UHGV virus genome: UHGV-0172001
DNA length: 46,559 bases
Strand: one strand, 5' to 3'
Origin: a virus
The translations under genes and the position numbers were made by a program. Below the pieces are notes generated by a model. It ran no database searches and was not told the DNA's origin. It saw nothing but the letters and a program-made list of their open reading frames with translations. Of the stretch, positions 5,416 to 20,439 are shown piece by piece; position 1 is the stretch's first letter, and each line of letters starts with the position of its first letter.

Positions 5416-5984
5416 TATCGCGTCCTCAACAATGAATTTTGTGATGCGGTGCCTGGTGCCTCCAGGTGACGTTAACCAGTTAACAATTAACGCCGGATAC
5501 AGGGAAACCCATAAACACCCGATACGGGGGAACTAATCGCTTTTTAACTGTTCCGCGTGCGCTGAGCCGCATTCACCGCATCACAAAATTCACTTTAAAA
5601 AGGGCGGACATCAGCCAGCAATGAAACTGATGCCGCCAAAAGGTAATCAACATGGGTTGTTGCAGCGGGGTTGTCACTTAAGCGTATGGTCAGCCTGACA
5701 ACCTGGTGCATTTTCTGGAGCAATGGAGGAAACCCCAGCCATACTTACCGCCGCGCCATTTCGCGGATTGCCACAACCGGAAGCGCACAATCGAAGAAAT
5801 CTAACGACAAGCCCTCTAAGGAAAAGACACCTCCGCCGTGCGCTTTCGCGTTATGCCCTGAGTTTTCAGGGATATATCCTTTCAGTAAACTGCCAGTGCC
5901 GGATTCTTATCCGTGTCCGGCGCACGACAACACGCTGTCACGTGTGGTCTCCATTCTCAACCAGTAACCTCAATGGAGGATAAA

Positions 5985-6194
5985 ATGCCAAACAAGCCAA
6001 TACATCCGCTTATTGAAAAACAGATTGAATGCCTGGTTAATCAACTCAGGCAATCAGGGTTATTAAAAACTCATTCAGAGCTAGGACTCACAGAATCGGC
6101 ATTCGACGATAAATTAAATAATGCGCTTTATAATGGCATCATTGATTACAATCGTGGTGCTGGTCGTCGTGGCCCTGCTGGTACAGCTTTGTAA
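5985..6194 (+). CDS. Hypothetical small protein, convergent and abutting the 6195-6833 gene
   Basis: ATG at 5985 preceded by GGAGGA; stop TAA at 6192-6194 directly abuts the stop of the minus-strand gene (TAATTA). Confidence 0.35.
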   Translation: MPNKPIHPLIEKQIECLVNQLRQSGLLKTHSELGLTESAFDDKLNNALYNGIIDYNRGAGRRGPAGTAL

Positions 6195-6844: not shown

Positions 6845-6997
6845 TCAGTCAGTGTTTCTGGCCAACCAGCGACGCGCGCCAGATTCGGTTTTAAACGTTT
6901 TGCTTTTGGTATACGTCATAGCGGTGAACGTGCCGTCCTGGTTTGGAAACACGCCGTACACCAGAGACTCGTTGTTGTCAAGATAGATAGTATCCAT
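6845..6997 (-). CDS. Small hypothetical protein downstream of the repressor (YdaF/YdaG-like position)
   Basis: 50-aa ORF from ATG 6997 with GAGG 7 nt upstream. Confidence 0.4.
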   Translation of the reverse strand: MDTIYLDNNESLVYGVFPNQDGTFTAMTYTKSKTFKTESGARRWLARNTD

Positions 6998-7193
6998 GCT
7001 GACCTCATTTCCCCTTAACGCCGGGGTAGCGGAACTAAGACCTGTCGCACCGTTGTGCTTTGATGGTTGAATGATACTATTCAAAGTAGATAAGTCAACA
7101 CAAAAAGTAGAATTTATTGTATCGTTTTCTATATAAAGTTGTTTTTTAAGGCAAAAAAAACCGGCAATGCCGGGTTTGTTAATGGATAAAAAA

Positions 7194-7679
7194 TCACTCG
7201 GAAGGAGGGGGGCAGGCGTATTCCTTGTAGAAATCGTAAAGCTTCTTGAGTCTCATCTCAAAAGCTAGGAGCATGTTCTTGGCTTCAACGGGGGGGAACT
7301 CTCGATACGTTCGTATCAGTCGTTTTTCATCCTCACTCAACTCGGCGAACTCACCACTACAGCTGGTGTCGGATTCTTGTGTTGTAAATGCTCCCCCTGT
7401 CGGTTCACTTCCTTTTTCCACCAGTTGACCATATTCCAGCCATGCGGGCTCGACCCCCAGGAACTCCGCTATTCGCTCAAGTTTTTCGTCTCGCGGTTTA
7501 GCGGTGCCCAGGGTATAGCGCCGCGCCATTTCGTATGTAACACCCGTGGACAGGCTTAAATCCCTGATGGATACATTTTTTTTGTCCATCTCAGACTTAA
7601 GCCTTGTCGCGAATGCGTGATGTTTATGTGTGCTTTCTATCATATGTGGAAGGTTAAAGCAGTTACCGTGTTTCGTCAT
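7194..7679 (-). CDS. Prophage repressor, XRE-family HTH (CI/RacR-like), no LexA-type peptidase domain
   Basis: HTH segment KKNVSIRDLSLSTGVTYEMARRYTLGTAKP; divergent from a cro-like gene; start uncertain (ATG 7679 or 7643, no strong SD). Confidence 0.8.
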   Translation of the reverse strand: MTKHGNCFNLPHMIESTHKHHAFATRLKSEMDKKNVSIRDLSLSTGVTYEMARRYTLGTAKPRDEKLERIAEFLGVEPAWLEYGQLVEKGSEPTGGAFTTQESDTSCSGEFAELSEDEKRLIRTYREFPPVEAKNMLLAFEMRLKKLYDFYKEYACPPPSE

Positions 7680-7694
7680 TTCTATTTTGTGTAG

Positions 7695-7722
7695 TTGCAA
7701 TTTCTACTTTTCGTAGTATTAT
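7695..7722 (+). promoter_or_regulatory. Candidate rightward early promoter (PR-like) with overlapping operator-like palindromes
   Basis: TTGCAA (7695-7700), 16-bp spacer, TATTAT (7717-7722); GTAG-N9-CTAC and CTAC-N5-GTAG palindromes at 7691-7716; about 28 bp upstream of the YdaS-like ATG. Confidence 0.5.
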
Positions 7723-13228: not shown

Positions 13229-13509
13229 GAAGGAAACAAAACAGAAACAACAATTGCCGTTACCTGTTGTTACCATGGCAAGTAAACGTATCTCAGGCGA
13301 GCGCATTGCGCCGTTCTGACGCAGATAAATTAGCCTGGATAGATGGTGCTGGCAATAAAAAATAGCGTTTTCTTATCGGTGTCGGTAAGATTGCTGCGGG
13401 TGCTTGAGGCTGTCTGCCTCGGGCATGCCACTGTAAGGCAGACAGAGAAAAGCCCCAGTTAACATTACGCGTCTTGCAGGACGCTTAACATTAATCTGAG
13501 GCCCAATCT

Positions 13510-13716
13510 ATGCCACACAAACATAGGTTAGCCTCTTACGGACCGAAAGGTCAAGGAGAAGCAGGCTATGAAGCAGCAAAAGGCGATGTTAATCGCCCTG
13601 ATCGTCATCTGTTTAACCGTCATAGTGACGGCACTGGTAACGAGGAAAGACCTCTGCGAGGTACGAATCCGAACCGGCCAGACGGAGGTTGCTGTCTTCG
13701 TAGACTACGAATCTGA
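13510..13716 (+). CDS. mok-like overlapping reading frame of the hok locus
   Basis: 68-aa ORF overlapping nearly all of hok in another frame, as in hok/mok/sok loci. Confidence 0.45.
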   Translation: MPHKHRLASYGPKGQGEAGYEAAKGDVNRPDRHLFNRHSDGTGNEERPLRGTNPNRPDGGCCLRRLRI

Positions 13717-20284: not shown

Positions 20285-20360
<76 letters not shown>

Positions 20361-20363
20361 TAT

Positions 20364-20439
<76 letters not shown>

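Follow-up and report, generated by a model that had tools for sequence, protein, structure and literature searches.

The two arms of a perfect inverted repeat in a 46,559-nucleotide viral genome (UHGV-0172001, the whole of which is referred to below as the window) are the two strands of the long closing stem of a folded minus-strand RNA that lies between the small RNA DicF and dicB. This stem, denoted P1, is in all likelihood a helix that RNase III cleaves in a dicBF-type transcript, separating DicF from the dicB message, and the interior is, by sequence comparison, a divergent copy of the structured 5' domain of STnc100.

The 17-nt repeat described in the original prediction is present: AATTTTGTGATGCGGTG spans 5435-5451, and 5574-5590 holds its exact reverse complement. 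The perfect repeat is actually 19 nt long (5433-5451 and 5574-5592), with 122 nt between the arms, and in the minus-strand RNA it grows to 21 pairs (5594-5574 with 5451-5431) through the addition of one A-U and one G.U pair. As delineated by repeat search and folding, the 5' strand of P1 (5574-5594, minus strand) corresponds to the right-hand repeat of the original prediction and the 3' strand (5431-5451, minus strand) to the left-hand one, and the stem is uninterrupted over all 21 pairs in the predicted fold. The repeat is far beyond chance: the 19-mer, with up to three mismatches allowed, was found twice compared with 0.08 occurrences expected from the shuffled window, and the folding energy of the 170-nt segment that includes it was -72.4 kcal/mol on the minus strand compared with -45.8 +/- 3.8 kcal/mol for shuffled sequences (z = -7.0). 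The fold of the plus strand is weaker, at -62.6 kcal/mol.

The 570-bp stretch around the repeat had been reported as gene-free. It indeed contains no minus-strand open reading frame (ORF) of 60 or more amino acids between 5416 and 5985, the longest one having 42, but a covariance model scan with Rfam detected the gene for DicF within it, on the minus strand at 5652-5602, together with a sub-threshold match to STnc100 on the same strand. The presence of DicF and dicB, which had not been recognized on either side of the element, accounts for both the gene-free stretch and the stem. On the minus strand, DicF (5652-5602) is followed by the stem-enclosed element (5594-5431), the Shine-Dalgarno sequence of dicB (GAGGA, read from the sequence at 5423-5427, 3 nt from the base of P1) and dicB itself (5415-5227), which encodes a cell division inhibitor of 62 amino acids (Pfam PF05358, DicB; 130 bits, E = 2.4e-38). 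No promoter-like site and no separate terminator was detected between DicF and dicB in the window. In phage Tritos and in the Qin prophage of Escherichia coli K-12, the order is immunity repressor, ydfA-type gene, DicF, dicB, ydfD and exonuclease VIII, and this gene order, shared with homologous phages and with Qin, shows that the window belongs to a lambdoid prophage of E. coli and holds its leftward, dicBF-type operon. The counterpart of the 570-bp stretch in K-12 is the non-coding region between ydfC and dicB.

The DicF copy of the window (5602-5652, minus strand) was identified with the Rfam model RF00039 (34.1 bits, with the cutoff at 48; E = 6.5e-05), by the DicF annotation that its homologue carries in phage Tritos, and by alignment with K-12 dicF. 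The score falls below the Rfam cutoff because the 5' region is unlike that of K-12 DicF, with the segment UUUCUGGUGACG swapped for UGUUGAUUACC, and the hairpin loop differs as well. Related loci contain at least five different variants of the DicF hairpin or 5' end, and the sets of DicF targets may, judging from these sequences, differ between the variants. The terminator hairpin with its U tract (GGCGGCAUCAG...CUGAUGUCCGCCC UUUUU) occupies 5597-5637 on the minus strand (terminator-like site at 5634-5607). On the minus strand, formation of P1 brings the CCUU of this terminator (5597-5602) beside the GAGG of the dicB Shine-Dalgarno sequence (5423-5427), and when the arms and flanking sequences are folded as a duplex, the two can form 4 bp; perhaps, such pairing may occlude the ribosome-binding site of dicB until RNase III cuts.

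Several features place the start of the operon at about 1.6 kb from the element. The C-terminal 51 residues (6845-7000) of a 79-aa ORF at 6845-7084 (minus strand) are what we take to be a relative of K-12 YdfA (DUF1391), a 168-aa ORF (7194-7700, minus strand) occupies the position of the immunity repressor of phage Tritos and K-12 (dicA), and promoter-like sites lie close to the latter ORF, at 7098-7071 and 7261-7233. On the opposite strand inside the leftward operon, a 69-aa ORF (MPNKPIHPLIEKQIE...; 5986-6194, plus strand) is located between a 216-aa ORF and the DicF leader, in the place that ydfB and ydfC occupy in K-12, and may be an inserted moron. Elsewhere in the window, a strong match to the sok antitoxin RNA at 13398-13570 on the plus strand (109 bits, with the cutoff at 59) points to a toxin-antitoxin locus of the hok/sok type in the prophage, and two adjacent tRNA genes, tRNA-Thr (UGU) and tRNA-Gly (UCC), are found at 20285-20438, also on the plus strand.

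The element is conserved in related prophages, with both arms present in 58 of the 63 distinct regions upstream of DicB-anchored loci; a scan of the genome contigs with DicB yielded only 8 loci, one of them (L010) spurious. A homologue of a 281-nt region was detected in 4642 of the 5426 complete E. coli genomes, in a median of two places per genome and in up to nine, and dicB was the annotated feature under the match in nearly all cases among the 30 matches listed. In the K-12-derived strains C600 and EV36, the identity is about 86.5% over 93% of the 281-nt query, and the Qin spacer of MG1655 aligns column by column outside the variable centre. Between the arms, the interiors of the dicB-linked elements range from 102 to 137 nt. 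About 55 nt on the 5' side and about 70 nt on the 3' side form conserved blocks, which flank a hypervariable centre that contains insertions and deletions. Two loci (L036 and L080) have dicB without DicF and without the element; here, a different coding sequence extends to a junction located within the 3' arm (...CTCAAAATTCATTG), a position suggesting that the stem sequence is where recombination breakpoints occur.

The association is not confined to dicB. A motif-anchored scan showed that the long-stem domain, joined to the DicF terminator by the linker UUUUUAAAG, is also found upstream of kil (phrog_294, a septation inhibitor), a regulator of the Ash family and an unknown small protein, and in one example from each of these downstream-gene groups the long-stem copy is preceded by the DicF-type terminator and this linker. 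In the group with the unknown small protein, U-A to C-G and A-U to G-C exchanges in the outer stem keep the helix intact.

RNase III needs about two helical turns of double-stranded RNA. P1 is 21 bp long in 55 of 58 dicB-linked copies compared with 5-9 bp (mode 8) in 106 free-standing copies of STnc100. When the substitutions in P1 were pooled, 200 copies gave 27 distinct arm pairs, all but one of them long-stemmed, which include three full Watson-Crick exchanges and four sites where pairing is lost on both strands. Variable sites that retain pairing on the sense RNA only number eight (144 copies) and those that retain it on the antisense RNA only number three (12 copies), a bias that is not significant by site count (8 vs 3, p = 0.11). 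Two C-to-U changes distinguish the K-12 stem from that of the window; in the sense RNA both give G.U pairs, whereas in the antisense RNA both would be A.C mismatches. The persistence of the stem substitutions, taken with the operon's direction, points to a helix that probably forms in the dicB-sense RNA.

The segment bounded by the repeat matches STnc100 (Rfam RF02076) over the full length of the model with a score of 34.6 bits (E = 4.3e-05), short of the gathering cutoff (47 bits); the kil-linked copy reaches 44.5 bits, and free-standing copies lie at 58-131 bits. The motif that the element has in common with the STnc100 consensus occurs at more than 120 loci in viral contigs, with up to three copies per contig, and the loci from this motif scan that were tested are true STnc100 (58-131 bits). 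One of the sequences (L156) is intermediate between the dicB-type and free-standing classes. On some phage contigs (L097, L138, L102 and L091), free-standing STnc100 copies form arrays of two or three within about 1 kb, and in one of these (L091) a copy directly follows three tRNA genes. In the window, a second, canonical copy of STnc100 was not found at E-values up to 0.01.

The enclosed domain is predicted to fold into a pseudoknotted four-way junction, for which a joint alignment of 11 dicB-type and 30 diverse free-standing domains provides covariation support. Across these 41 sequences, the proposed fold pairs 87.7% of the cells compared with about 40% when the partners are slid, and the covariation score is 0.492 compared with 0.173 for shuffles (0 of 500). 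The first hairpin, P2 (5555-5570, minus strand; GCGGC-UCAGC-GC(A)CGC, with a UNNGC pentaloop and a bulged A), is paired in 99.5% of the cells and is fully compensatory between the classes, with GCGGC/GCCGC here vs CCCCC/GGGGG in the free-standing copies. P4 (5468-5494, minus strand; GGCGUUAA / UUAACGUC with the loop UUGUUAACUGG) is paired in 92.3% of the cells, with changes on both sides at six of the eight pairs, and P5 (5452-5466, minus strand; CCUGG-AGGCA-CCAGG, with an invariant loop) in 100%, its middle pair being U-A here vs G-C in the free-standing class (11 vs 30 sequences). The smaller palindromes noticed in the original prediction are thus real and turn out to be helices of this fold: CCTGG-N5-CCAGG is P5 (5466-5452), and the GTTAAC...TTAAC repeats are the hairpin P4 along with its loop (5494-5468). 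Between P2 and P4, the alignment shows unrelated sequences and insertions or deletions between the conserved blocks, which define a hypervariable central (P3) region of 49 nt (5495-5543, minus strand). The longest stretch in the window complementary to this variable centre, which was searched for as a potential antisense target, is 11 nt, compared with a mean of 10.9 for shuffled sequences.

The 5' half of the pseudoknot is the segment X (CAGUUAA; 5544-5550, minus strand), and its partner, revealed by covariation, is X' (UUAACUG, 5483-5477) in the loop of P4. The pseudoknot columns are paired in 76% of the cells, with changes on both sides at all four of the four pairs, and the partners swap wholly between subtypes, from CAGUUAA/UUAACUG here to CCAGUC/GACUGG and AUCAGC/GCUGGU elsewhere. 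In an alignment-free test, cognate partners gave 6.5 contiguous base pairs vs 4.6 for non-cognate ones, a difference reached in 0 of 5000 permutations. The loops of P2 (UNNGC, 5565-5561) and P5 (AGGCA, 5461-5457) are invariant or nearly so; these loops are columns 22-26 and 149-153 of the alignment, and the GC of the former and the GGC of the latter could, in a structural model, form a loop-loop contact, for which such invariance leaves no covariation signal. P5 directly precedes the 3' strand of P1, which gives the four-way junction a cloverleaf-like layout.

With regard to the function of P1, the element can be compared with K-12. There, as stated in two papers (PMC5069750 and PMC9438474, citing Faubladier et al.), RNase III generates a 72-nt DicF from the full-length mRNA and a 53-nt form arises by termination; the RNase III substrates named in a review (PMC2777011) include the intergenic regions of dicA-dicF-dicB. 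A count of 72 nt from the start annotated for K-12 dicF leads to position 10 of the 19-nt 5' arm, equivalent to 5583 in the window, a placement that is arithmetic from secondary citations of Faubladier 1990 and not the original mapping; if the 53-nt form includes terminal U residues, the end moves to arm positions 10-14, still inside the arm. Because the published end falls at arm position 10, we take the stem to be an RNase III site, very probably, by analogy with K-12, the known one 3' of DicF. According to the in vivo rules for this enzyme (PMC6212723), the valley spans about 22 bp, the 3' overhangs measure 2 nt and the cuts usually have a G-C pair between them. Based on K-12 homology and the 2-nt overhang geometry, the cuts in the window are inferred to fall after 5583 and between 5441 and 5440, with two pairs, G-C and U-A, between them, so that the 21-bp length, the 3' overhang and the G-C pair fit the published rules. 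A central cut of this kind leaves a closing stem of 9 bp, a length that free-standing copies also show.

Upstream of DicF, at about 5773-5855 (minus strand), CAUAACGCGAAAGCGCACGGCGGAGG and CUUCGAUUGUGCGCUUCCGGUUGUGG pair in a second helix, long but imperfect, that K-12 and the window have in common. An RNase III cut produces the 5' end of a 190-nt DicF precursor (PMC10448788), and in K-12 this end falls in the 3' strand of the second helix. The same 2023 study, which deals with dicBF processing, considers no RNase III cut other than the one upstream of DicF, and two transcriptome-wide maps of RNase III sites (PMC6212723, PMC5371410) cite DicF as background only.

Under the mechanism that we propose, some transcripts would read through the DicF terminator into P1, which would form, close the 122-nt structured domain and end 3 nt before the dicB Shine-Dalgarno sequence. 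RNase III would then cut both strands of P1 near the middle. This would release a long, 72-nt-type DicF that ends near 5583 and excise an RNA of about 142 nt (5582-5441), which the 9 bp left of P1 would keep closed. The dicB-ydfD mRNA would retain a leader of about 25 nt that carries a 5'-monophosphate and starts at about 5440, near the Shine-Dalgarno sequence. Such cutting would uncouple DicF from dicB and may change the translation or stability of the dicB message. The helix, its conservation and strand, where it lies with respect to DicF and dicB, and the homology of the interior to STnc100 are observed directly, and dependence on RNase III would carry over from the K-12 literature.

Other interpretations of the repeat have to be considered, some of which had been offered in the original prediction. 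The suggestion of a small RNA gene was right in that the repeat is an RNA helix on the minus strand that encloses an STnc100-homologous domain; it does not hold in that the element lacks a promoter and a terminator and resides inside the DicF-dicB transcript. In the strict form of this reading, the element is an independent gene for a trans-acting small RNA of the STnc100, PasD or EcOnc27 type, with a promoter and a terminator of its own and Hfq-dependent base pairing. The match to the full STnc100 model and the covarying core fold in common with that family are what such a gene would display, and free-standing relatives are expressed and associated with Hfq (PMC5331693, PMC12711010). However, the match does not reach the Rfam cutoff, only 9 nt separate the DicF terminator from P1, a promoter-like site precedes P1 in none of 57 dicB-linked copies and a terminator precedes dicB in none of 60, and the variable tail and terminator of many free-standing copies are missing. 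Because the element is without promoter, tail and terminator, an independent small RNA gene is unlikely, and we assign it a low probability. Among the free-standing copies, a terminator-like site was found in 58 of 106 (within the 60 nt examined). The idea that all such copies have their own promoter was discarded, given that a strict sigma-70 consensus is present in only 21 of 106; in those 21, the -10 element ends 3-7 nt before P1.

The possibility that the element acts in cis on transcription, as a repressor operator, a lambda-type nut site or an antitermination RNA of the HK022 put type, is lower still and is rejected. A structured RNA in a leftward operon where the original prediction had found no N gene invites this view, all the more so as dicB expression requires read-through of a terminator. 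Yet the element is downstream of the DicF terminator and so cannot aid read-through of that terminator, and about 1.6 kb separates it from the region of the repressor and promoters. Furthermore, boxA (YGCTCTTTA) is absent from the whole window, and a scan of the HK022 genome gave no STnc100-like match at E-values up to 0.1 and no occurrence of the core motif with up to three mismatches, a comparison that covers the genome as a whole, which carries putL and putR.

We also reject, as even less credible, the proposal of a miniature inverted-repeat element (MITE) or another mobile DNA insertion with terminal inverted repeats. A perfect 19-bp terminal inverted repeat around a short non-coding segment, present in several copies per E. 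coli genome (median two, up to nine), has the outward appearance of such an element, but the flanks, ...UUUUUAAAG and UUGUUGAGG..., show no target-site duplication, and a search for a direct repeat in the flanks CCCTTTTTAAAG and TTGTTGAGGACG found none. The long-stem element is confined to a single context, always after a DicF-type terminator in leftward operons of prophages, and its multiple copies reflect multiple prophages. Moreover, the arms correspond to the 5-9-bp stem of a structured RNA in lengthened form, the stem substitutions favour G.U pairs on one strand, and the two element-less loci (L036 and L080) show a junction inside the 3' arm and no clean empty site. Least plausible of all, and likewise rejected, are an invertible DNA switch, suggested by inverted repeats that bound a short segment, given that the interior is in one orientation in all 36 of the 36 distinct dicB-anchored elements, and a small-protein gene, suggested by a 30-aa sense ORF (5572-5480) and an antisense ORF that start inside the arms, given that the sense ORF ends in three different frames and is only 13 aa long in the commonest variant, and the antisense ORF changes frame between variants.

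The proposed RNase III-cleaved helix around an STnc100-type domain has relatives among known systems. The closest is the dicBF operon of K-12 Qin (ydfABC-dicF-dicB-ydfD), which has the same gene order, an orthologous spacer with about 86% identity and the same long stem, in the middle of which the published 3' end of 72-nt DicF maps; the second helix upstream of DicF is conserved as well. Unlike Qin, the prophage in the window has a different 5' region of DicF, a different central segment in the element and other ORFs in the place of ydfB and ydfC, and its processing would follow the K-12 pattern by analogy.

With STnc100, the element shares P1 ending in GGUG/CACC, the AAU linker, P2 with the UNNGC loop, P4, P5 (CCNGG-AGGCA-CCNGG) and the covariation-supported pairing of the P4 loop with the segment after P2. 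EcOnc27 overlaps STnc100, and PasD has been reported as related; these are small RNAs of the late regions of lambdoid and Stx prophages. By contrast, the element is embedded in the early-left operon, lacks the promoter, 3' tail and terminator, and has a P1 of 21 bp vs 5-9 bp. Strain EDL933 has 11 annotated STnc100 copies, none of which adjoins any of its four DicF copies, and a published ncRNA table that contains both RNAs gives them only as separate entries.

The intercistronic RNase III hairpins of the lambda N leader and of T7 early mRNA are similar. In such hairpins, cleavage parts the two sides and fixes where the downstream message begins. The same arrangement, in which a long intramolecular helix stands between an mRNA and the upstream cistron or small stable RNA, occurs at metY-nusA and rpsO-pnp, which are listed with dicF in PMC2777011. 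Unlike these, the helix in the window encloses not a simple loop but a conserved pseudoknotted domain of 122 nt, so cleavage would also free a discrete folded RNA.

Part of the present picture is known: RNase III processing next to DicF was described in 1990, and the stem in the window is an orthologue of that site. The link of the enclosed RNA to STnc100 is a modest new point. We did not find a relation between the dicF-dicB spacer and STnc100 in the literature searched, and neither DicF nor dicB is mentioned in a 2026 preprint devoted to PasD and STnc100. The spacer, which has no annotated feature between the two genes in the K-12 RefSeq record, holds a conserved pseudoknotted domain of the STnc100 type, supported by covariation, whose closing stem is specifically lengthened to the size required by RNase III. 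Standard Rfam-based annotation misses this operon-embedded subfamily of STnc100.

For the biology of these prophages, DicF together with the domain is a portable leader placed before different genes, including two septation inhibitors, dicB and kil. The dicBF operon is predicted to yield a third product, a folded RNA of about 140 nt, and the excision of this RNA would give RNase III a concrete way to uncouple DicF from DicB synthesis. Conceivably, and here we speak tentatively, as of an idea more doubtful than probable, the excised RNA of about 142 nt is a functional autonomous module with a role other than base pairing, in which the hypervariable arm is the specificity determinant and which lambdoid phages deliver in two ways. 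If so, the module might, for example, bind a host or phage protein or mimic a tRNA-like junction, and would be delivered both as the 5' body of stand-alone small RNAs and through excision by RNase III from the DicF-kil/dicB operon. The pseudoknotted four-way junction with invariant P2 and P5 loops would then be a widespread RNA module of phages.
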